Assembly: GCA_963696385.1 (NCBI GenBank)
Contig: CAVOKF010000003.1
Coordinates: 160,001 to 224,000, forward strand
From: an uncultured delta proteobacterium
Lineage (GTDB): Bacteria; Myxococcota_A; Polyangia; Polyangiales; Polyangiaceae
Length of the DNA: 64,000 nt
Direction of reading: 5' to 3'
Part shown: piece by piece, positions 3,285 to 13,760 of the stretch
How the letters are laid out: every line of letters begins with the position of its first letter
Numbering within the stretch: position 1 is the first letter of the stretch
The notes under the pieces: model-generated
Seen by the model: the letters and a program-made list of their open reading frames with translations, nothing else
The model's database searches: none
What the model was told of the DNA's origin: nothing
Program-made: the position numbers and the translations under genes

Positions 3285-3477
3285 TTAGTAGTCCACCCCG
3301 CCACTCGCGCGAACCAAGAAGTGCGACGGTTCTTGGGGGGTGGGACACTCGCAAAGCGCGGGAGCGGTTTGGGAGGTACGGGACGGAGCCCTGGAAAGAC
3401 AAGGCTCGTGGTCTATTTTCGCTGCGCAGCAGCGTGCCCGCGGATGGATCCGGGGGGCTTACGAAACGGACCCCTAG
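3285..3477. repeat. Dispersed MITE-like repeat copy
   Basis: Colinear similarity with 11873-12045; right end CTTACGAAACGGACCCCTAG is the reverse complement of 26677-26696 at 19/20 positions. Confidence 0.7.
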
Positions 3478-3692
3478 TTGCACCCGCATCCTCCGCCCGA
3501 AACGCCCGTTCCCCCCATCGATCCTTCTCGGTTGTCCAGGGCATGCCGGAGCGCTGCGTCGTGCTTCGCCTCGGCGTCGAACTGCATCGTCGGATCGGCC
3601 AACATCGCTCGCTGTTCCGGCGCAACCGTCGCGCAGCCGACGACCACGATCGCGACGCAGAACGTGAGGATCAGAAGGAAAAACCGGGGCAT
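3474..3692 (-). CDS. DUF4266-family small lipoprotein
   Basis: Lipobox VVGC, LADPTM, REGSMGG and terminal GGGCGCN. Confidence 0.88.
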   Translation of the reverse strand: MPRFFLLILTFCVAIVVVGCATVAPEQRAMLADPTMQFDAEAKHDAALRHALDNREGSMGGTGVSGGGCGCN

Positions 3693-3701
3693 CGCGACTC
3701 T

Positions 3702-4508
3702 TCAGAAGTAGACGCCCAAACCGCCGGAATAGGTCTGTCCGTTTTTGTAGGAGTCGGCCGAGAATACGGACAGATCGGTCGCTTCGAGCCGCACCAGGAT
3801 ACGATTGCGCAGCGCGAAAAGAAGCCCGCCTCCCGCACGCGCGACATACAGGTCCTCGCGGCGCAAAACGAATGAGTCCGCATTCGGCAGCACGCTCATC
3901 CCTCCCGCGAAGATGCCCAGGAACGGACACACGGGCCACGAAGGGGCCAGATAGATGGCCAGACCGCCGCCGTAGAGGAGCTCGGATCCGTCATTCGTCA
4001 AGCCGTCGCCGACAAATCCTTCCAAGCTGACCGTCTCGTGCAGTACGAGTGAAACTCTCGCCTCGACGTACCCGAAGCGCTGCACGGCCCCACCGACGAC
4101 GGGGATGCTCAGCAAGCCACCGAGCATCGCCACGCCTCCATGCGACCCTCGGAGCGGGGGCGGGGCGAACACCCCCGGTCGCGAGGGGCCCCCCTCATCG
4201 GCCGGGCTGACCCCAAAGGGCTGCACCTCATCGCCAAGCACAAACGCTACCCGCCCGTCCGACAGAATGACGCGAAGCCAAAAGCCCGCCCCCGTGCGCC
4301 CGTCGAGCGCGAACGTCTCTCCGCGATGCGCCTGGTAAATCACGCGGTAGCTGATTCCAGGCCCCGTCCGGAGCTCGGCGGCGTCGACAATCACGCGCGC
4401 GAACGCGTTGACTTCTGGATCGTCGGAGTGAGGGCCCGACGCCGCGACCGGAGCGGCCATGCAGACCCACCCGACGACAGGCCCGAGCACGTGAGCGGCC
4501 CCCTTCAT
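3702..4508 (-). CDS. SH3b-domain protein with a C-terminal outer-membrane beta-barrel-like region
   Basis: LRTGPGISYRVI SH3 motif; amphipathic strands ending GGLGVYF; ATGA overlap with the upstream gene. Confidence 0.75.
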   Translation of the reverse strand: MKGAAHVLGPVVGWVCMAAPVAASGPHSDDPEVNAFARVIVDAAELRTGPGISYRVIYQAHRGETFALDGRTGAGFWLRVILSDGRVAFVLGDEVQPFGVSPADEGGPSRPGVFAPPPLRGSHGGVAMLGGLLSIPVVGGAVQRFGYVEARVSLVLHETVSLEGFVGDGLTNDGSELLYGGGLAIYLAPSWPVCPFLGIFAGGMSVLPNADSFVLRREDLYVARAGGGLLFALRNRILVRLEATDLSVFSADSYKNGQTYSGGLGVYF

Positions 4509-4975
4509 TGGGCCCAAGTGCTCAGAAGCGTGACGACCGTCGGGTCTTGAGGGTTGATTACGGTCACGTGACCGTTTCCGCTCGGCCGAACGAGGAGGGG
4601 CGCGACCGTGTAGTCGCGGCTCATCTCGGAGGACACAGCCACATAATTGCTTTGGGGTGGGCTGCCGGTCCCGATCTGCGTCAGGTCGACAGGATGATCC
4701 CCGCCGTCGCAATCAACGGCTGCATGGTCGATGAGGCCCATGCCGCTGACGGCAGCGGGATTGAAGTGACAGCTGTTCGGCGGATACTTCGAATCGCCGG
4801 GCCCACAATTGTTCGCGAAAATGTACTGCGGCTCGACGTGACAGTAAAAGTAGTCGGCATCGAATGTCACGTCGGCGACGACGAAGTTGGTCCCCGGATC
4901 GACCGTCGTGCACCCGACCAGAAGCGCGGACCACGCGCACGGGCCGGCGCGCCAAATCGTCGCCCCAAAGGCCAT
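4505..4975 (-). CDS. Hypothetical Cys/His-containing lipoprotein
   Basis: Lipobox LLVGC; CX11CH motif; translationally coupled to the downstream gene. Confidence 0.72.
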   Translation of the reverse strand: MAFGATIWRAGPCAWSALLVGCTTVDPGTNFVVADVTFDADYFYCHVEPQYIFANNCGPGDSKYPPNSCHFNPAAVSGMGLIDHAAVDCDGGDHPVDLTQIGTGSPPQSNYVAVSSEMSRDYTVAPLLVRPSGNGHVTVINPQDPTVVTLLSTWAQ

Positions 4976-5287
4976 TTTCAGACGATAGACCGGTGAGCTC
5001 AACGGCTGCAACGATTCCGCGCGATCTCACCAAGCATCCACACGAACCGTTCGCGGCTTGGAACGGGTCGCCGAAAGAGTGACCTTGTCCTCTGCTCGCC
5101 TGAATGGACGGGGTGCGCCTAGGTACCCCTCGCGACAAAGCCCTTTCGCCACCGGTCGGTTTCGCTTGCCCCACCGGCGGCTCATCAGTAGAAGTTTGGA
5201 TTCCCGCAGTTGGATGTCGTAACGTAACCCACATGTAAGGCGCTAACGCCCGCAACCCCGTCGACGTCCTCGCGGAGATCCTCACGC

Positions 5288-5479
5288 ATGAAGCTGACGC
5301 CCTGGTATCTCATTGCCATTACCCCTATCGCCGTCGCTGGGTGCTCCGGCGCCTTCCTCGGGCATTGCGCGGTGTTGGCCGTTACCGTTTGCATCTTCGT
5401 CGGTACGCTGTCTCTCGGCCGCCATTCGGCATCGACCCCTCTGGCTGGCGAGCCGGGAGACTTGCGCGAGACGCGCTGA
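5288..5479 (+). CDS. Small hydrophobic hypothetical protein (63 aa)
   Basis: GGAG upstream of ATG; signal or lipobox-like VAGC followed by a hydrophobic helix. Confidence 0.5.
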   Translation: MKLTPWYLIAITPIAVAGCSGAFLGHCAVLAVTVCIFVGTLSLGRHSASTPLAGEPGDLRETR

Positions 5480-5489
5480 ACCAAGGGTC

Positions 5490-5516
5490 CGTCAGGGGGG
5501 CGCAGCGCCCCTGACG
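5490..5516. repeat. GC-rich hairpin (REP-like or terminator-like)
   Basis: CGTCAGGGG ... CCCCTGACG 9-bp stem just after the stop at 5479; no U-tract. Confidence 0.45.
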
Positions 5517-5598
5517 CGCCTGCCCCATGCCTCGTCCTTGCGATAGGGGCACCCGGCGAGTTTGAGCTAAGGTCCAACGCCCCCCATTCGGGGCCTCC

Positions 5599-6708
5599 AT
5601 GAACGACGCTGATCGCGAGCCGGGAGAGCGGCTGAAACCGCTCGATGAGTTCACGCTCGCCGATCTGGAGGCGATCCGACTCATCCTGCGCGGCGACTCG
5701 GTCATCGATTGGCGCCGTCTGGACCTCACGACCGAAGAACACGTGCGGGAATTTCTGCATGCTCAGGAGCTGCATCCGGACGAGCCCGCTGACCGGGCGC
5801 GCATGGATCACGTCAAGAGCGAAGCGATCGGATACTTGCGCCGCCAGTTCGATTACCCGATCCCCAGGCCGGTCGAGCAAGCGACGGTGTCCGAGCTCCT
5901 ACTTCTCGCGGCCGGCCGTGGCCACCGTGCGATGTGCGCATGCACGATTCTGAAATGCATGCACATCATTCACCATCTCGACGGCCGCGAGCTGCTGTTC
6001 GTTCTGCCGATGTCGGATCACGACGTGTTCCACATCGTCGAGGAGAAGGTCTACCGAGTCATCGGTGCGATGCTCGCCGGAGGCTTTCCGATCATCGAAT
6101 TCGTCGGAGGACGCAAGAACAAAGACTCGCTGATGACGAAGCTCCTTTCGAAGCAGGACACCATCGCCGCACAAGTCTTCGACAAGCTGCGGTTTCGTGT
6201 CGTTACGCGAACGCGTGACGATATTTTTCCAGTCCTTCAATACCTGACCAAGAAGCTGTTCCCGTTCAATTACGTCGTCCCCGGCCAGAGCATCAACTCG
6301 ATCTTCGGCTTCAAGTCCTACGTGGACAAGACGACTCTGAAACCGCTTCTCGATCAGATGCAAGTGTGCGGATGGAACGACAACGAATTCACGCCCAGCG
6401 ACAACCAGTTCTCCGCGGAATCCTACAGGATTATTCATTTCGTCGTGGATATGCCGGTGCGATTGCCGAGGCGAATCCTCGACCGCGCACCCTCCAGTGC
6501 GGGAACTCTCGGCAACGTGATTTTCGTTATCTGCGAGTTCCAGATCGTCGACCGCGACAGCGAAGCCCACAACGAGATTGGTGATGCGTCGCACGCCAAG
6601 TACAAAGAACGGCAAAAGAAGGCCGTCATGCGTCGACTTCAGCTCGGCGGGGCCGGCGACGCACCTGCAGGCGCGGAGCCGTCGCAAGACGTGCGCAGAA
6701 AGAGGTAA
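5599..6708 (+). CDS. TIGR04552-type protein with RelA/SpoT synthetase-like motifs
   Basis: LRGDSVIDW N-terminus; GRKNKDSLMTKL, FDKLRFRVV, SYRIIHFVV, EFQIVD, EIGDASHAKYKE. Confidence 0.8.
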   Translation: MNDADREPGERLKPLDEFTLADLEAIRLILRGDSVIDWRRLDLTTEEHVREFLHAQELHPDEPADRARMDHVKSEAIGYLRRQFDYPIPRPVEQATVSELLLLAAGRGHRAMCACTILKCMHIIHHLDGRELLFVLPMSDHDVFHIVEEKVYRVIGAMLAGGFPIIEFVGGRKNKDSLMTKLLSKQDTIAAQVFDKLRFRVVTRTRDDIFPVLQYLTKKLFPFNYVVPGQSINSIFGFKSYVDKTTLKPLLDQMQVCGWNDNEFTPSDNQFSAESYRIIHFVVDMPVRLPRRILDRAPSSAGTLGNVIFVICEFQIVDRDSEAHNEIGDASHAKYKERQKKAVMRRLQLGGAGDAPAGAEPSQDVRRKR

Positions 6709-6729
6709 CGGAGTAGAAAGGCCGCTGCC

Positions 6730-7239
6730 ATGCGTCTGTACAGCGGAAAAATTCCTGCGGTCTCGGCCGAAATCGTTCGCGCGCTGCTCACTTCGAACGA
6801 CATCGAAGCGGAGAGCCCCAAACAGGTGGAAGCGGACGTGGCGGCCGTCCTCACGCAATACCTTTCCGACGAACGCGAGGTGAACGACCGCGCCAAGGAC
6901 GTCCTCGAACGAACGGGCAAGCCAAATACCGAATTCTCGAGGGTGCGGCAGCTCGTTGCGGAAGAGAAGGGCATCAAGGTGGGCGACGATGCGTTGGATT
7001 ATTTGCTCGACCAGGTCGTCGAGATGTTGATGCACTCAAACCATGTCGACGAGGTGTATGTCGAAGACGTCGAGCTTCGGCGAAAGATGGCGCCCATCTT
7101 CAAGAAGCACATGGCCGTCGATGCAACGGTCGACGCCGAAGTACGAGCGCAGATCCGGAACGTTCGCGAGGGAACGCGCGAATGGGAGATTGAGTTCGCG
7201 AAGGTCCTCGAGCAGGTGAAGCGCAAGAAGGGTCTCTGA
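6730..7239 (+). CDS. DUF507-family protein
   Basis: MRLY N-terminus, helical acidic/basic composition, REGTREWEI..KRKKGL C-terminus. Confidence 0.75.
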   Translation: MRLYSGKIPAVSAEIVRALLTSNDIEAESPKQVEADVAAVLTQYLSDEREVNDRAKDVLERTGKPNTEFSRVRQLVAEEKGIKVGDDALDYLLDQVVEMLMHSNHVDEVYVEDVELRRKMAPIFKKHMAVDATVDAEVRAQIRNVREGTREWEIEFAKVLEQVKRKKGL

Positions 7240-7352
7240 GGCGCGCCGTCGTGGCGGCCGGCGTTGGACGGCCCTCACGGCGGGTTTCGGGCCTGGCGGT
7301 GTTCGCGCTCTGTCTGGAGGCCGATGCGAAATCGTCGTAGCGTGGGAAATCC

Positions 7353-8225
7353 ATGCGCAGCATGACCGGATTCGGGCTGGGGCAGACGCCGCTGGGCGCA
7401 GGCACGCTCGGGGTCGAGATCCGCGGAGTCAACCACCGATTTCTCGACGTCCGGGTGCGAGTGCCGCGGGAGTCGACGGACATGACGGGATTTGTAGAGC
7501 AACTGGCCCGCGAGCGACTGACTCGAGGTCGTTACGAGGTCGTGCTTCGGATCGACGGCGTCGCGCTCGGCGCTCCGGCACTCGACCGCGACCGGGCACG
7601 AGCCGCCTTCCGTGCCCTCTCCGAGCTGCGCGACGAGTTGGCGCCGGGCAGTGAGGTCCCGCTCTCGCTGCTCGCCGTCATTCCAGACTTATTTGCGCCG
7701 CCGGTCGACCCCGAGACGGATCGAATTCGGGACGCTACCCGCTTTGCCTTCGACGCGGCTGTCCGCGCACTCGACGCCATGCGCGAGTGCGAGGGGACGG
7801 CCTTGCGAGACGATCTCACGCGACGGCTCGAACGTGTGAAGCGCATCGCGCGCGAGATCCATCGGCGCTCGCCCGACGTCCTCGAGGCGCACCGAAGGCG
7901 CCTGTCCGATCGTGCGGAGCGGCTTCGAGCCGGTGGAGAGATCGACGTGGACGCCGGACGCCTCGAGCAGGAAATCGCCGTATTCGCCGAGCGTTGCGAC
8001 ATCACCGAGGAGCTCACGCGTCTCGAGAGTCACTGCGGTCAATTCGCCGCGCTTCTCGGCGCCGAAGAAGCCGTAGGACGCCGCCTCGACTTTCTCCTGC
8101 AAGAGATGGCACGCGAGGCCAACACGGTTGGCGCAAAGAGCCCGGACGCGCCCGTCGCACACGCCGTGGTCGAGTTGAAGGCGGAAATCGAACGGATGCG
8201 CGAGCAAGTGCAAAACGTCGAATGA
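7353..8225 (+). CDS. yicC: YicC/YloC-family endoribonuclease
   Basis: MRSMTGFG, VNHRFLD, DITEELTRL, GRRLDFLLQEMAREANT, REQVQNVE. Confidence 0.95.
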   Translation: MRSMTGFGLGQTPLGAGTLGVEIRGVNHRFLDVRVRVPRESTDMTGFVEQLARERLTRGRYEVVLRIDGVALGAPALDRDRARAAFRALSELRDELAPGSEVPLSLLAVIPDLFAPPVDPETDRIRDATRFAFDAAVRALDAMRECEGTALRDDLTRRLERVKRIAREIHRRSPDVLEAHRRRLSDRAERLRAGGEIDVDAGRLEQEIAVFAERCDITEELTRLESHCGQFAALLGAEEAVGRRLDFLLQEMAREANTVGAKSPDAPVAHAVVELKAEIERMREQVQNVE

Positions 8226-8854
8226 ATTCCAAGGACGACTTTCTCCTCCTGATCCTTTCGTCGCCCAGCGGTGCGGGCAAGACGACGCTCACACGACGGC
8301 TTCTCGGGTACTGCCCGGAATTGCTCTTCAGCGTAAGTCACACGACGCGACCCGCTCGTGCCAACGAGGTGAATGGACGCGACTACCATTTCGTCGATCG
8401 GGCAACGTTTCTGGACTTGGCCGCGAAGGGGGCGTTTCTCGAGTGGGCCGAGGTGCATGGCAATCTTTACGGTACCTCGACCGCGGAAATCGACCGCGCG
8501 CGAGCCGTCCACGGCTGCAACGGAATGCTCTTCGATATCGACTACCAAGGGGCCCGGCAGATCAAATCGAAAGTGACTGACGTCGTGGCAGCCTTCATCT
8601 TGCCGCCGTCGATGATGGAGCTCGAACGACGCCTCCGCGGGCGGGCCAGCGAAACGGAAGAGACTCTCAAACGTCGATTCGAAGTTGCCAAGCGCGAGAT
8701 TGAGCACTACGGTCTGTTCGATTATCTGGTGGTCAACGACGATCTGGACCGGGCCGTCGACGAGCTGCGCTCGATCGTCGTCGCCGAGCGAGCGCTTCGA
8801 CCGCGGCGCGCGCATCTAGCCGAATCCCTTCTGCGAACGGGCAGGCTGGTGTAA
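8222..8854 (+). CDS. gmk: Guanylate kinase
   Basis: SPSGAGKTT P-loop, SVSHTTR, GRDYHFV, EWAEVHGNLYGT; ATGA overlap with yicC. Confidence 0.96.
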   Translation: MNSKDDFLLLILSSPSGAGKTTLTRRLLGYCPELLFSVSHTTRPARANEVNGRDYHFVDRATFLDLAAKGAFLEWAEVHGNLYGTSTAEIDRARAVHGCNGMLFDIDYQGARQIKSKVTDVVAAFILPPSMMELERRLRGRASETEETLKRRFEVAKREIEHYGLFDYLVVNDDLDRAVDELRSIVVAERALRPRRAHLAESLLRTGRLV

Positions 8855-8884
8855 GCGATGGACGTCGGGAACCGGAGCCGAATC

Positions 8885-9748
8885 ATGTCCAGACGAAACA
8901 CGTTGGCCGTCATCGGCGGGAGCGGATTGTATCGAATCGAGGGCCTCGAAGAGGTCGAGGAGGTCGACGTCGACACGCCGTTCGGTCCCCCGAGCGATGT
9001 CGTTGTTCGGGGTCGGCTCGGCGACACCACGTTTCTGTTTTTGCCCCGGCATGGGCGGGGCCACAGCATCGCGCCACACGTCATCGACTATCGCGCCAAC
9101 GTGTGCGCCTTAAAGAAGCTCGGGGCCACTCATCTATTGAGCGTGAGCGCCGTCGGCTCGATGCGCGAGGACATTGCTCCCGGTGACTTCGTGGTCGTCG
9201 ACCAGTTCATCGACCTCACGAAAAGGCGCGTCGCGACATTCTTCGAAGACGGCGTCGTCGCGCACGTCGGGTTCGCCGATCCGGTCTGCGCGGACTTGGC
9301 CGGCGCGCTCGCGCGCGCCGCGGAAGGGGTGGGTGTCCGAGTCCATCGCGGCGGAACGTATATCTGCATCGATGGACCTCAGTTCTCGACGAGAGCCGAA
9401 AGCCGCCTCTACCGGTCGTGGGGAGTGTCGGTGATCGGAATGACGGCCATGCCGGAGGCCAAACTCGCGCGCGAAGCGGAACTCCCCTACGCGCTTTTGG
9501 CGCTCGCTACGGACTACGACTGTTGGCACGAGAGCGAGGCTGACGTGACCGTCGATTCGGTCCTTGCCGTGATGGATCGCAACGTGTCTTCCGCGCGGCG
9601 CGCCGTCGCCGAACTTTCGCTCCGGCTTCCGGACCCGGAAAAGAGCTCGGCGTCGGGGGCGCTGCGCCTGGGGTTGATGACCGATCGCCAGAGCATTTCC
9701 GCCGCCGCGCACGCACGGCTCGACTGGCTCGTAGCCAAGTACTTGTAA
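8885..9748 (+). CDS. mtnP: S-methyl-5'-thioadenosine phosphorylase
   Basis: IGGSGLY, TPFGPPS, LPRHGRGH, GPQFSTRAES, VIGMT, TDYDCW. Confidence 0.94.
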   Translation: MSRRNTLAVIGGSGLYRIEGLEEVEEVDVDTPFGPPSDVVVRGRLGDTTFLFLPRHGRGHSIAPHVIDYRANVCALKKLGATHLLSVSAVGSMREDIAPGDFVVVDQFIDLTKRRVATFFEDGVVAHVGFADPVCADLAGALARAAEGVGVRVHRGGTYICIDGPQFSTRAESRLYRSWGVSVIGMTAMPEAKLAREAELPYALLALATDYDCWHESEADVTVDSVLAVMDRNVSSARRAVAELSLRLPDPEKSSASGALRLGLMTDRQSISAAAHARLDWLVAKYL

Positions 9749-9765
9749 ACCTCAGGGAGATTGTC

Positions 9766-10707
9766 GTGACCGGCAGCAACAACGATTCACTTCTCGTCGT
9801 AGGGTCCATCGCGTTCGACGACCTCGATATGCCATCCGGTGAGTTCCGCAGCGTTCTTGGCGGATCCGCGACGTACGCGTCGCTCGCCGCCTCGCTCTTG
9901 TCACCGGTTCGCGTCGTGGGGGTTGTGGGGGCGGACTTTCCGGAGTCGCTCCTCGAGCAAGTCCGCGCCCGGGGTGTGGACACGTCCGGTATCGAGCGGG
10001 CCGATGGGCGAACGTTTCGCTGGCACGGCCGCTACTCCAGCAATCTCGCGAGCCGCACGACGATCGACACGCAGCTCAATGTCTTCGCAAACTTTGCGCC
10101 CCGAGTTCTCTCGGTTCATCGCACATGTTCGTTCGTCCTTCTCGGAAACATCCGTCCCCAGTTGCAAACCGACGTCCTCGAGCAGATGCCGCGCTGCAAA
10201 TACGTAGCCGCCGATACCATGAACTTCTGGATCACAGGCGAGCCGCTCGCACTCGCCCTGCTTCTGCGCCGCGTCGATCTGTTGATTGTCAACGACGAGG
10301 AGGCGCGTGCTCTTTCCGGAATCGACAACTTGGTGCGCGCCGCGGCGGACATTCGCAAGCGTGGCCCCAGGGCGCTCGTCATCAAACGTGGTGAGTTCGG
10401 GGCTCTTCTTTTCGACGATACCGGAACGTTCTTTGCGCCGGGCTATCCGCTGGAAGAGGTCTTGGATCCGACCGGCGCCGGTGACGCATTCGCAGGAGGG
10501 TTGATGGGCTACCTCGTATCGCGCGGCGAGGTGTCGCCTGCGGCCGTGCGCCAGGCGATGTTCTTCGCGTCGGCGCTCGGAAGCTTTTGCGTCGAGTCGA
10601 TCGGGCCCGCTCGGTTGTTGGCGATCGGTCGATCGGATCTCGCAGCGCGCATCGGTGCGTTCGCACGACTCGTCGATCACGGAGGCAACTTGGGTCTGTC
10701 CGTGTAA
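9766..10707 (+). CDS. PfkB-family carbohydrate/nucleoside kinase
   Basis: VGSIAFD, LGGSATY, DTMNFW, DPTGAGDAFAGG. Confidence 0.92.
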   Translation: MTGSNNDSLLVVGSIAFDDLDMPSGEFRSVLGGSATYASLAASLLSPVRVVGVVGADFPESLLEQVRARGVDTSGIERADGRTFRWHGRYSSNLASRTTIDTQLNVFANFAPRVLSVHRTCSFVLLGNIRPQLQTDVLEQMPRCKYVAADTMNFWITGEPLALALLLRRVDLLIVNDEEARALSGIDNLVRAAADIRKRGPRALVIKRGEFGALLFDDTGTFFAPGYPLEEVLDPTGAGDAFAGGLMGYLVSRGEVSPAAVRQAMFFASALGSFCVESIGPARLLAIGRSDLAARIGAFARLVDHGGNLGLSV

Positions 10708-11876
10708 TGGAATCCGACGGCGACGCGCGCGCCTACGAGGCGCTCTCGGAGCTCCCACGGCTCGCCGACCTCGCCGCGATCGCGCAGGAGGTGATGAGCC
10801 GCGCGGCCGAGGCCCGACGGTCCGAGGAGCAGCCGGAGCCGACCGAGAAGCTCGCCGCGCAACGGTGTCTCACGCGCGAGGAGGCGGCGACGCCATTCGG
10901 CAACGCGCTGGACGTTCTCGCCCGAGGGCCCACCAACAGCACCGAGCGCACTCTCGCACGCGCCCTTGCAGGACAGGCCCTCGGACTCTGGCCCACGGAA
11001 GCGTCCGACGAGGAGGACCGGCGAGCGAGCCAACTCCTCTGGCTGGCGACACACACTTGGTTCGATGCGACGGGATTCGTCGACCGGGCGCTCGGGGACC
11101 GCGCGGACAGGGTTTGGGACGCGTTCGCCGAGCGCGTGCGTCGCCATGACGACGGCACGCTTGCGTCGCTCGGTCGCCCCGAGACGCTGGTGGCTGCGAT
11201 CGCCCTGGCGTCTTCCCCGTCGGCCAACGCATCCCGCCTTTGCTCACGGCTCGCTACCGAAGCCCACGATCCGATGATCGCGACCATTTTGCGGCGAGCC
11301 GGTGATCGAGGCGGAGGCCATTCTCTGGTCGGCGAGTGGGCCCACTCACCTCGGGGCTGGTTCGCGACCGCATCGCTCGGCTTGACGGGCCTGTCGCTCG
11401 TCATGAACGTCGCCCGCGCCATCTTGCGCGTGGCATTCGCGTACCGCAAGCCGGCGGAGGTCACGCTTTCCGAGGATGGTGGCGTGCGCGTGCGGTGGCG
11501 AATCGAGCTTTTGGGTCGCACGCTGCGGGATCGAGACGTCGTTGTTCCGCGCTCCGCACTGGCCCGCGCAACACGAGATGTGCGCTACCCCCGGTTGGCC
11601 CTCTATGGAGCACTCTTCGCGCTTGCGCTGGGCAGCTACGTCGGCGTCACGGCCTTCATCGACGGCTTCCGCGCGGAGTCTCCGTCGGTCGTTGCCGCAG
11701 GGCTCGCGATCGTCGCGGCCGGTTTCGGGCTGGATTTGGCGTTGACGAGCATCGCATCGGGCGCACGTGGCCGATGCACGGTTGTCTTCGTTCCCCGCCG
11801 GGGCACCCCCCTGTGTGTTGGGTCCGTGGACATCGCGGCGGCCGACGCCGTATTGACACGGCTGTCTCAGGGCTAG
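10707..11876 (+). CDS. Hypothetical membrane protein
   Basis: TAATG coupling to pfkB; about 3 hydrophobic segments in the C-terminal half. Confidence 0.75.
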   Translation: MESDGDARAYEALSELPRLADLAAIAQEVMSRAAEARRSEEQPEPTEKLAAQRCLTREEAATPFGNALDVLARGPTNSTERTLARALAGQALGLWPTEASDEEDRRASQLLWLATHTWFDATGFVDRALGDRADRVWDAFAERVRRHDDGTLASLGRPETLVAAIALASSPSANASRLCSRLATEAHDPMIATILRRAGDRGGGHSLVGEWAHSPRGWFATASLGLTGLSLVMNVARAILRVAFAYRKPAEVTLSEDGGVRVRWRIELLGRTLRDRDVVVPRSALARATRDVRYPRLALYGALFALALGSYVGVTAFIDGFRAESPSVVAAGLAIVAAGFGLDLALTSIASGARGRCTVVFVPRRGTPLCVGSVDIAAADAVLTRLSQG

Positions 11877-12050: not shown

Positions 12051-13760
12051 TCAATGTCCGTCGGGCGAGTCGATGCGTTCGCCAATGACGGAGTCCAGAT
12101 GTCCAGCCGACGCTCGCATTTCGAAGCGAATGATGCGTGAGGCGTCCTGCGGGGCGCAAGCGCGCACCGCGGCCGCGTGGGCCGCTTCAGCGCGGTCGAT
12201 CTCGACGTCACGCGGCTCGAAGGCGCGAATCTCGATCCCCAATCCATCGCCCTGGGCGCCCACGGTCACGCGTAGACATCGGCCCGCAGGAACGGTCTCG
12301 GTCCAGGTGACGAGTCGCGACTCGTCAAGAGCGAGCTCGCGAGCGGCGCCGTCTTTGCCTGGAAGAAGCATGGCTTCGCCGACGGCGGCACGAGCCAACA
12401 TGCGCGATGATGCGAGAGGATGCGAGGTAAACGAGGGGTCCTTCCATGGTTCGGGCCGCACGAACACAGCGTAGGGCCCGGGCCGTCCCCGCGCCTCGAG
12501 CTCAAGGCGTGCAGGTCCGCGGGTGCATGCGAAGAGCGCAAGAGACGAGGACGCCTCGCCGGACGCCAAAAGCGCATCACCCGCCCCCCAGACGCGGGCC
12601 TCCAGCAACGACAGAGGCGCCCCCGCGACCACGTCGATGCGTCCGCACGAGCTGCCAAGCCATCCGAGCTCGAGAGGCAAGCTCGCCCGTCGCCCGAGCG
12701 CGAGCACGCCGGATGCGGTCGACGCGGGAGGTGGGTAGCCGCTCTTGGCCAGCAACGCGTTGGTGGCCCGCTTCGCAACCTCGAGCGAGCGCGTGGGCGA
12801 CATCCATACAATGGCCGGCCGCTCGGTGAGGTCCCGTGCCACGTCGCCGCCGGCCCGCGCCAGGACGATGGCCACCAATCCACGACCGGCGTGCGGGCGA
12901 ACCGACAGCGTCCCGGCCATGGGCACCGGGGAGCACAGGGTCATGGACCGCGGCCCCATCTCTTCTCGGGCACGCGCCACAACCCGCCCCTGGTCGTCGG
13001 TCGCTTCTACATCCAGCAAGGCGACGTCGTCATCGGGGACGATGATCGCGTCGACGCACTGATCGGCGTCGACCGGCATCGAAGCGTACGTCGGGGCGCT
13101 GACGTCGACTGGGAGGGCAACGCGCTTGAACTCTTCCCATTTGCCGCCCAACTCCAATCGATGACGTCGCACCGCTTCATCCAGGCCCGGCCACGCATCG
13201 GCAGCCCGCGTCCCCTGCCCGAGCGCTCCACGGATCGCGAGCCCGTGAGCTACGGCGGCTGCTTGCTCCCTAGCCACGAGCTGGGCACCCACCGCAACGA
13301 GACCCTCGCCTTCGACCACGTGGGCAGCCACGTAGACGCGGATCGGGTGGGGGGGACACACGAGCACCGTTGGATGCACGTCACGCGCTTCGTCGACGGC
13401 CACCGAGGTCCCTTCATCGGAGTAGACCGCGACGTCCACGTCCTCCACAGAGGACGACGCTCTCGCATAAGCGAGCATGCAGAGCTCCGGCGGCACCTGG
13501 ACGAACGCCCCGAGCCAATCGTTGTCGAGTGCTTCCCCGGAAGCGACCAGCGACGGCGGCCCCGCGCCAAAGCGTGAGGCGCGAGCCGGTACATCCCCGA
13601 GGAGCGCCCGAGCTCCGAGCTGCCCCGCCGCCACCTCGGGGGCCCCCAGCGGCAAGCGCGTCGTCGCCTCGTGCAGAGAAGGTCGGAACGGGGCGCAGCC
13701 GGCCAGCACGATGACACCGCCGAGCCACGCGGTCGGCGCGTTGAGCGACAGGGCCCTCAC
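12051..13760 (-). CDS. Hypothetical lipoprotein with four Cys-paired beta-sandwich-like repeats
   Basis: Lipobox LAGC; four modules with two Cys each; GTGA overlap with the upstream gene. Confidence 0.75.
   Translation of the reverse strand: MRALSLNAPTAWLGGVIVLAGCAPFRPSLHEATTRLPLGAPEVAAGQLGARALLGDVPARASRFGAGPPSLVASGEALDNDWLGAFVQVPPELCMLAYARASSSVEDVDVAVYSDEGTSVAVDEARDVHPTVLVCPPHPIRVYVAAHVVEGEGLVAVGAQLVAREQAAAVAHGLAIRGALGQGTRAADAWPGLDEAVRRHRLELGGKWEEFKRVALPVDVSAPTYASMPVDADQCVDAIIVPDDDVALLDVEATDDQGRVVARAREEMGPRSMTLCSPVPMAGTLSVRPHAGRGLVAIVLARAGGDVARDLTERPAIVWMSPTRSLEVAKRATNALLAKSGYPPPASTASGVLALGRRASLPLELGWLGSSCGRIDVVAGAPLSLLEARVWGAGDALLASGEASSSLALFACTRGPARLELEARGRPGPYAVFVRPEPWKDPSFTSHPLASSRMLARAAVGEAMLLPGKDGAARELALDESRLVTWTETVPAGRCLRVTVGAQGDGLGIEIRAFEPRDVEIDRAEAAHAAAVRACAPQDASRIIRFEMRASAGHLDSVIGERIDSPDGH

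Follow-up and report, generated by a model that had tools for sequence, protein, structure and literature searches.

TIGR04552, a conserved RelA/SpoT-type protein of most Myxococcota, is predicted to be an active enzyme with an altered acceptor site

The window analysed here is a stretch of 64,000 nucleotides from an uncultured delta proteobacterium of the family Polyangiaceae (assembly GCA_963696385.1, contig CAVOKF010000003.1, positions 160,001 to 224,000 of the forward strand). Positions 5599 to 6708 of the window encode a protein of the TIGR04552 family, in which an earlier reading of the letters alone, referred to here as the original prediction, had recognized five motif strings in the order of the synthetase domain of RelA/SpoT homologue (RSH) enzymes. 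The 369-residue open reading frame exists on the plus strand and all five motif strings are found in its translation. The protein scores 351.9 bits against the NCBIfam model TIGR04552, with residues 20 to 347 aligned to profile positions 2 to 350 of 352, and 343.5 bits against the sister model TIGR04562. Both models are named 'TIGR04552 family protein' and their curated cutoffs are 125 and 140 bits, respectively, which places the window protein in TIGR04552 by its full-length score of more than 125 bits. It is a full-length member that shows no difference from catalogued members of the two models such as MXAN_4858 of Myxococcus xanthus. Relatives of 366 to 370 residues align across 100% of its length, the closest named ones coming from metagenome-assembled genomes of Polyangiaceae (77-83% identity), while cultured Sorangium and Polyangium have relatives with 64-67% identity. 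The gene is a real variant of the RSH kind of enzyme, in a catalogued family without an assigned function. Its features, all on the plus strand, are as follows.

5599..6708, + strand: TIGR04552-family gene, 369 amino acids, stop included, from the open reading frame and the NCBIfam match
5644..6003, + strand: N-terminal family-specific helical domain, residues ~16-135, from helices in both predicted models and from conservation
6004..6645, + strand: RSH-type synthetase domain with a predicted Pol-beta-like nucleotidyltransferase fold, residues ~136-349, from VIA, Foldseek, and PF04607
6109..6141, + strand: motif 1, GRKNKDSLMTK, residues 171-181, with K173, S177, and K181 as the putative ATP-phosphate site by alignment to RelSeq
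6178..6204, + strand: motif 2, FDKLRFRVV, residues 194-202, with the putative catalytic Asp195 and Arg200 by alignment, and the family-specific Arg198
6262..6297, + strand: family-specific conserved loop PFNYVVPGQSIN, residues 222-233, inside a ~37-residue insertion
6418..6447, + strand: motif 3, ESYRIIHFVV, residues 274-283, aligned to GYRSLH of RelP
6535..6552, + strand: motif 4, EFQIVD, residues 313-318, aligned to E323/Q325/R327/T328 of RelSeq
6571..6609, + strand: motif 5, NEIGDASHAKYKE, residues 325-337, aligned without gaps to A335...H342/Y345/K346 of RelSeq

The proposal that this protein is a divergent RSH-type synthetase homologue is backed by Pfam, by profile searches of the PDB, by hhalign, and by structural searches with Foldseek and VIA. 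The Pfam family RelA_SpoT (PF04607) matches residues 173 to 339 over profile positions 4 to 112 of 113 with a marginal score of 28.3 bits (E 2.2e-6), narrowly above the gathering cutoff of 27 bits. In an alignment of 68 diverse family sequences with 28-58% identity to the query, from which all residue counts below are taken, 30 members reach PF04607 at E<=0.01, which is the only Pfam family to recur. A PDB search with the single sequence returned no RSH enzyme, its sole match being a CO-dehydrogenase subunit at E 1.6, and detection in the PDB therefore needed the family profile. With the profile of the 68 sequences, all six PDB matches at E<=1 are RSH enzymes, comprising RelP/YwaC (E 0.0049), RelSeq (E 0.013), Staphylococcus aureus Rel (E 0.017), and three RelA entries. 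Aligned by hhalign with the N-terminal halves of 30 long RSH proteins of the same class, the family gives a probability of 94.4% and an E value of 9.3e-8 over 260 columns. A search of the ESM Atlas matched only the TIGR04552 family's own clusters. The RSH relationship is not new to databases: a PF04607 match is precomputed for most relatives, and the relationship is already present in Pfam-based annotations.

The predicted structure points the same way. A template-free AlphaFold2 model of the protein has a predicted local distance difference test (pLDDT) score of 90.9 and a predicted template modelling (pTM) score of 0.89, with disorder predicted for the C-terminal tail (residues 350-369). At a threshold of E<=0.001, Foldseek found 37 PDB matches to this model, and the 22 among the matches listed are without exception RSH synthetases, either small alarmone synthetases (SAS) or Rel proteins. 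The VIA structural search, which covered 48,161 chains, ranked Bacillus subtilis Rel first (Z 11.1, root-mean-square deviation 2.9 Å, 130 residues aligned), followed by RelP (Z 10.7), RelQ (10.5), S. aureus RelP (9.9), RelA (9.0), Rel (8.9), and SpoT (8.0), with an exported SAS (7.2), CapRel (6.3), Tas1 (6.2), and FaRel (5.2) lower among the RSH matches. RSH enzymes make up all of the 11 best VIA matches (Z 6.1-11.1), while generic Pol-beta-type nucleotidyltransferases reach only Z 4-5.5, and the matches cover model residues ~135-345. By its modelled fold, the protein is thus closest to solved RSH synthetase domains, and the check for a Pol-beta/RSH nucleotidyltransferase fold that had been suggested with the original prediction came out positive with both search programs.

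Alignment to RelSeq by hidden Markov model places K173, S177, and K181 on K243, S247, and K251; D195 and R200 on D264 and R269; E313 and Q315 on E323 and Q325; and H332, Y335, and K336 on H342, Y345, and K346, with motifs 4 and 5 aligned without an intervening gap. These positions are nearly invariant. In motif 1, K173 is kept in 66/68 sequences, S177 in 62/68, and K181 in 65/68, and in motif 2, D195 is kept in 66/68 and R200 in 65/68. E313 and Q315 of motif 4 are each present in 67/68, and motif 5 retains H332 in 65/68, Y335 in 66/68, and K336 in 63/68, together with N325 (67/68) and G328 (65/68). The residues expected to form the RSH catalytic and ATP sites (K..S..K, D..R, E.Q, and H..YK) are therefore maintained in 62 to 67 of the 68 sequences, as had been proposed for the catalytic Asp and Glu in combination with an altered acceptor site. 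The description of motif 1 as GRxKxxxSxxxK stood as to the string but not as to its spacing, which is R-K-x3-S-x3-K rather than R-x-K: the Arg is one residue nearer to the Lys than in the canonical motif and is retained in just 35/68.

The side of the domain that would hold the acceptor looks different. The Gly of DxxGxR is replaced by Arg (R198, 66/68). The motif 3 strand SYRIIHFVV aligns with GYRSLHLII of RelP, and only its aromatic residue is retained, with Tyr in 49/68 and Phe in 17/68 at position 276; position 280 is Asn in 41/68 and His in the window's lineage. In motif 4, Val-Asp takes the place of the Arg-Thr of ExQIRT, with the Arg position occupied by Val, Leu, or Phe across the family and the Asp (D318) being a family-specific residue kept in 67/68, so that the loss of the QIRT arginine noted from the sequence is correct. 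The segment carrying EXDD/RXKD was indeed found to be replaced by an insertion, although the domain has two insertions and not the single one first described: Asp195 and Tyr276 are separated by 81 residues (family median 83) versus 44 in RelSeq, and Tyr276 and Glu313 by 37 residues versus 15. No RxKD/ExDD-type motif was identified in the window protein, and a PFNYVVPG-containing insertion is found in its place. This insertion, which stands where the canonical acceptor loop would be, holds the loop PFNYVVPGQSIN, with P222 conserved in 67/68, N224 in 62/68, and N233 in 67/68. The features associated with a guanine acceptor (the RxKD/ExDD loop, G-Y-x-S-x-H, and the ExQIRT Arg) thus do not occur in their canonical form.

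Preceding the synthetase domain, residues 1-135 are helical and have conserved positions of their own (G32, S34, D37, W38, D65, C115, K119, and H126), of which K119 is invariant (68/68). When residues 1-140 were folded alone, the model had a pLDDT of 80.1, and the score of residues 10-40, which is ~95 in the full model, fell to 64-70; the N-terminal domain may therefore pack against the catalytic domain. A Pfam scan of the protein found no HD, TGS, or ACT domain, and structural searches with the N-terminal domain agree with this absence, which had been claimed from the sequence. With residues 1-140 as the query, the best VIA match had a Z score of 5.9 (the RbcX helical hairpin), below the stated noise level for helical models, and Foldseek gave no match at E<=0.001. 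The hhalign alignment reaches the HD region as well, pairing query residues 16-135 with template residues 78 to ~200 in its C-terminal half, with low confidence there. We considered whether the domain is a remnant of an HD hydrolase and found this idea unsupported, as the HD protein OxsA reaches only Z 3.8 in VIA and no Foldseek match is found at E<=0.001.

Taken as a whole, the sequence and the model lead us to propose, with a probability of about 0.7, that the TIGR04552 protein is an active RSH-type enzyme. We favour activity because the donor site and catalytic acids are kept in sequences that are just 28-58% identical to the query overall, because the base-stacking aromatic residue (Tyr/Phe 276) is retained, and because housekeeping synthetases match the model more closely than do the toxins that modify tRNA or make (p)ppApp. 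The core-gene distribution, a weak hint of expression, and a phenotype hint from M. xanthus, all described below, also count in its favour. The enzyme would consist of two domains, with the helical N-terminal domain (residues ~16-135) packed onto a diverged RSH synthetase domain (residues ~136-349). After binding ATP, it would act as an alarmone-type synthetase and pass the beta,gamma-pyrophosphate on to a purine-nucleotide-like acceptor at its 3'-OH. Its acceptor pocket would have been rebuilt, in that the conserved insertion with PFNYVVPG stands in for the RxKD/ExDD loop, the Arg of QIRT has gone, and three residues (R198, D318, and N325) have been gained, so that substrate and product may differ from the canonical conversion of GDP or GTP to (p)ppGpp.

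Several points weigh against this proposal. Activity is predicted from fold and residue conservation, and the roles assigned to the residues (phosphate binding, Mg binding and catalysis, and stacking of the adenine and the acceptor base) are presumably those seen in structures of RelSeq, RelP, and RelQ. The PF04607 score lies just above the cutoff, and 38 of the 68 family members fall short of E<=0.01. Features of (p)ppGpp synthetases on the acceptor side are absent or changed, including the RxKD/ExDD motif, the motif 1 Arg, the motif 3 His, and the QIRT Arg, and activity on GDP or GTP is consequently not assured. Finally, the contigs from RNA libraries described below are a weak hint of expression, as such libraries may hold DNA and a contig is not equivalent to a transcript.

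Comparison with characterized RSH enzymes helps to place the family. RelQ (SAS1/YjbM) and RelP (SAS2/YwaC) of Firmicutes (PDB 5dec, 5ded, 6fgk, 6ewz, and 6ex0) have the same fold as the model of the window protein, with VIA Z scores of 10.5-10.7, Foldseek E values of about 3e-5, and 15-22% identity in structural alignments. They share with TIGR04552 motifs 1, 2, 4, and 5 as well as the aromatic residue of motif 3, and neither group has HD or TGS/ACT domains. Unlike RelQ and RelP, TIGR04552 has an extra 135-residue N-terminal helical domain and insertions of ~37 and 22 residues around motif 3, and lacks the RxKD/ExDD acceptor loop and the QIRT Arg. At 369 residues and with a profile E value of 0.0049 to RelP, the protein differs from a Firmicute-type SAS, which would be a single domain of ~200-250 residues with significant similarity. 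The synthetase domain of long RSH proteins (Rel, RelA, and SpoT; PDB 8acu, 1vj7, 5l3p, and 7qps) provides both the best structural match, B. subtilis Rel, and the 94.4% hhalign probability to N-terminal halves of same-class Rel proteins, and an RSH census discussed below apparently files detected members under its Rel model. In contrast to long RSH proteins, TIGR04552 is devoid of an HD hydrolase domain, of TGS, and of further regulatory domains at the C-terminus, and the protein ends 20 residues past the synthetase domain.

If the enzyme is active, we give about equal weight to (p)ppGpp synthesis through a different pocket and to the formation of another product. A more specific version, in which TIGR04552 is a phylum-wide housekeeping branch of the RSH enzymes with a pocket completed by the N-terminal domain and with a product other than (p)ppGpp, is tentative, and we consider it possible rather than probable. 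Such a product would be a different messenger of the nucleotide 3'-pyrophosphate type, or else a target, macromolecular or not a nucleotide, that has been pyrophosphorylated. The idea of a nucleotide-messenger synthetase put forward in the original prediction thus keeps its RSH homology and altered acceptor site, but not the significance attached to a purine cluster or the description as lineage-specific, both of which are addressed below.

Downstream of the TIGR04552 gene lie five genes on the same strand, whose identification as DUF507, yicC, gmk, mtnP, and a PfkB kinase is borne out by NCBIfam and Pfam.

6730..7239, + strand: DUF507 gene (PF04368, E 1.2e-35), 21 bases downstream of the TIGR04552 gene
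7353..8225, + strand: YicC/YloC-family endoribonuclease gene (TIGR00255, 212.6 bits; Pfam YicC-like N and C domains)
8231..8854, + strand: guanylate kinase (Gmk) gene (TIGR03263, 217.1 bits)
8858..9748, + strand: S-methyl-5'-thioadenosine phosphorylase (MTAP) gene (TIGR01694, 307.6 bits, cutoff 274.85)
9766..10707, + strand: PfkB-family sugar or nucleoside kinase gene (PF00294, E 3.4e-33), with no NCBIfam equivalog above its cutoff

The gaps between the six genes from TIGR04552 to PfkB are 21, 113, 5, 3, and 17 bases. A scan of positions 4900-11200 for promoters and terminators turned up no promoter-like site. The terminator-like sites number three, below the shuffle mean, and all are intragenic, so that the scan is uninformative. 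Contigs from metatranscriptome libraries of peat and wetland that are 95-100% identical to the window cover positions 6007-6888 (run X16) and 6310-7173 (run X17), both bridging the TIGR04552/DUF507 junction, and others bridge the YicC/Gmk and Gmk/MTAP junctions. Positions 5642-6004 and 7215-7940 are without contig cover in all four RNA runs, which is uninformative.

To survey synteny, window proteins were compared by tblastn with the flanking DNA of TIGR04552 loci. Of 18 genomes of the window's own family, 17 have the order TIGR04552, DUF507, (YicC), Gmk on one strand (2/2 and 15/16, the miss being locus L057), and none of 22 genomes of other families has it (0/18 and 0/4), those of the same order and class included. 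Within the own family, other DNA is inserted at variable places, and DUF507 lies 32 to 3079 bases past the end of the TIGR04552 gene. In both of two same-order genomes, DUF507-YicC-Gmk (G170) or DUF507 ... Gmk (G065) stands on a contig apart from the TIGR04552 gene, and three of three more distant genomes have DUF507 without YicC or Gmk within 7 kb. The contrast between 17/18 inside and 0/22 outside the family, together with the independent DUF507-YicC-Gmk arrangement, identifies the adjacency as a recent, family-level juxtaposition: in a single family, the TIGR04552 gene came to stand ahead of a DUF507-yicC-gmk cluster that is older. Its position there is a gene-order feature of that family and says little about function, and the yicC-gmk 'purine cluster' therefore does not serve as the functional evidence for which it had been taken.

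These results bear directly on the alternative that the six genes form a functional purine/alarmone module, in which the product of the TIGR04552 protein would regulate Gmk or purine salvage, or would be made from the products of DUF507, YicC, Gmk, MTAP, and PfkB. In several phyla (p)ppGpp targets Gmk, and the six same-strand genes with gaps of 3-113 bases, the absence of a terminator-like site from those gaps, the order kept in 17 of 18 own-family genomes, and the RNA-library contigs that bridge the TIGR04552/DUF507 junction in two runs would all suit such a module. However, the adjacency disappears in all 22 genomes outside the family, the rest of the cluster occurs without TIGR04552 in both same-order genomes, own-family loci have interposed genes with offsets of up to 3 kb, and a two-gene contig is not proof of one transcript. 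We consider the module unlikely, and the gmk neighbourhood is a local gene-order accident.

Outside the own family, the neighbours of TIGR04552 vary and include Lon protease, ExbB/ExbD, RsgA, M16 peptidases, sigma-54, GreA, TatD, and a Clp-like ATPase; RsgA is found in two loci and M16 peptidases in two, and none of those neighbours recurs broadly. No antitoxin-like, immunity, or secretion-related neighbour and no recurrent small partner was found in these loci. Ser/Thr kinases, many of them carrying a PEGA domain, are present in 9 of 21 loci outside the family. In five genomes from five families (L037, L038, L039, L040, and L047) the kinase gene is directly convergent to TIGR04552, three of the five convergent kinases have a PEGA domain, and one of the five genomes shares only its phylum with the window. 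This convergence may be an old adjacency or may have arisen by chance given the abundance of kinases. We do not claim the kinase as a conserved partner, since such kinases are very numerous in the phylum and orthology is not established.

In the genome of the window, TIGR04552 is represented by one gene, accompanied by a single canonical long RSH, a 742-residue open frame ~460 kb away on the same contig. Across the phylum, TIGR04552 is found above its curated cutoff in 199 of 301 sampled genomes, mostly with one match each, while some families are without a match in the sample (for example 0/18, 0/10, and 0/9 genomes). A long RSH was found in all 41 same-class genomes. A representative library at 50% identity gives 777 clusters at E<=0.001, and the 90% library gives at least 2874 matches among 8000 candidates scored. 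A Bdellovibrio gene bears the TIGR04552 annotation in one published study (PMC9888234), which, with the 199 genomes, makes 'lineage-specific' too narrow a description. We read TIGR04552 as a core gene that most Myxococcota have inherited vertically, mostly in a single copy, and that works alongside the canonical long Rel, and not as a toxin-antitoxin or defence element. In several same-class genomes (G301, G270, G210, G010, and others), PF04607 also matches frames of ~200-1200 residues at 40-116 bits. Such frames encode additional RSH synthetases, small or fused, that are distinct from both long Rel and TIGR04552 and are perhaps the 'MixRel' of the RSH census.

That census describes 30 SAS subfamilies (Jimmy et al, 2020; PMC7229694), and the text passages and 30 Myxococcales rows considered here contain no SAS subfamily specific to TIGR04552. 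An additional 'Rel[S]' appears in five of those 30 rows, namely M. xanthus DK 1622, M. hansupus, M. virescens, Sorangium cellulosum So0157-2, and Chondromyces apiculatus (PMC7229694, Dataset sd02). The So0157-2 chromosome has only two PF04607 matches, its long Rel and its TIGR04552 gene, and the 'Rel[S]' of the census is therefore probably the TIGR04552 family, picked up sporadically when a sequence passes the threshold. Sporadic detection fits the rate of 30/68 with which family members reach PF04607.

A second alternative is that the protein pyrophosphorylates the 3' end of RNA, such as the CCA of transfer RNA (tRNA), as CapRel and FaRel2 do, or another macromolecule. The rebuilt acceptor pocket would allow this. 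The toxic SAS enzymes (toxSAS; CapRel, FaRel, FaRel2, PhRel, and Tas1) have the same superfamily fold and likewise have non-canonical acceptors, and CapRel, Tas1, and FaRel are among the structural matches (Z 5.2-6.3). The synthetase-like domain alone is also basic, with an isoelectric point (pI) of 9.2 and a net charge of +5, in a charge analysis that is not decisive. However, taken over its full length the protein is close to neutral (family median pI 6.6), and housekeeping synthetases match the model better (Z 9-11) than toxSAS do (Z 5-6). Unlike toxSAS genes, which are mobile and sporadic and lie next to antitoxin or immunity genes or in a secretion context, TIGR04552 is a mostly single-copy core gene (199/301 genomes) for which no conserved antitoxin-like or secretion-related neighbour was found. 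An RNA target is, in our judgement, quite unlikely.

Pooled genetic data touch on a third alternative, in which the RSH fold has become catalytically silent and only binds ATP or an alarmone, with the N-terminal domain giving it a sensory or regulatory role. Transposon insertions in MXAN_4858 of M. xanthus are reported to give a dampened version of the motility/aggregation-type fitness pattern of motility mutants in a pooled development assay, in a study whose treatment of the gene terms it uncharacterised and places it near the G1 gliding cluster (bioRxiv 10.64898/2026.08.28.747804). The mildness of this phenotype would be compatible with a silent regulator, as would the degenerate acceptor motifs and the attachment of a conserved extra domain without a recognised fold relative. 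Retention of Asp195, Glu313, and the phosphate-site Lys and Ser in 62-67 of 68 sequences at 28-58% identity is instead the pattern of an active enzyme, and we regard silence as very unlikely. That the RSH likeness is a chance or compositional artefact of some other fold, as the single-sequence PDB search without an RSH enzyme and the marginal Pfam score might suggest, is hardly credible when four independent lines concur (Pfam, profile against PDB, profile against profile, and a template-free model whose 11 best matches are RSH enzymes).

The literature searched yielded no published function for TIGR04552, TIGR04562, or MXAN_4858, in agreement with the statement of the original prediction that the family has none assigned, and a search joining RelA/SpoT homologues, Myxococcus xanthus, and small alarmone found nothing. 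In the classical view, (p)ppGpp made by RelA sets off myxobacterial development. Another conserved enzyme of the RSH fold, found in about two thirds of the sampled Myxococcota and combining intact catalytic residues with an altered acceptor pocket, would be an unrecognised input to nucleotide signalling in these social and predatory bacteria and would add a housekeeping, non-toxin branch to the RSH superfamily. Recent surprises among RSH enzymes, namely (p)ppApp synthesis and tRNA pyrophosphorylation, have all come from divergent small members. If the product is not (p)ppGpp, myxobacteria would have a second, undescribed alarmone-like pathway feeding development and motility, which could, to judge from annotation, extend to other predatory bacteria. 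Because the homology is already on record, interest centres on the predicted chemistry of this second RSH-fold enzyme, which is conserved in most Myxococcota, and at ~370 residues the protein is soluble-looking, with M. xanthus genetics existing for MXAN_4858.

Several further observations concern the surroundings of the gene. Upstream and divergent, on the minus strand, are genes for a small DUF4266 protein (3477-3692), an SH3_3-domain protein (3705-4712), and a 168-residue protein without a Pfam match (4508-5011). The SH3_3 and 168-residue open reading frames overlap by ~200 bases, and one of their starts is probably misplaced. Relatives of both proteins are found upstream on the opposite strand in 8 of 16 same-family loci. 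Three short contigs from a further wetland metatranscriptome (run X18) are identical to the window at 5426-5576, 6917-7102, and 8737-8941, the first of these sitting just upstream of the TIGR04552 start codon. Beyond the PfkB gene, the open reading frames at 10707-11876 (+ strand, 389 residues as tested) and 12051-13760 (- strand, 569 residues) match no Pfam family at E<=0.01, and a relative of the former follows the PfkB gene in two same-family loci.

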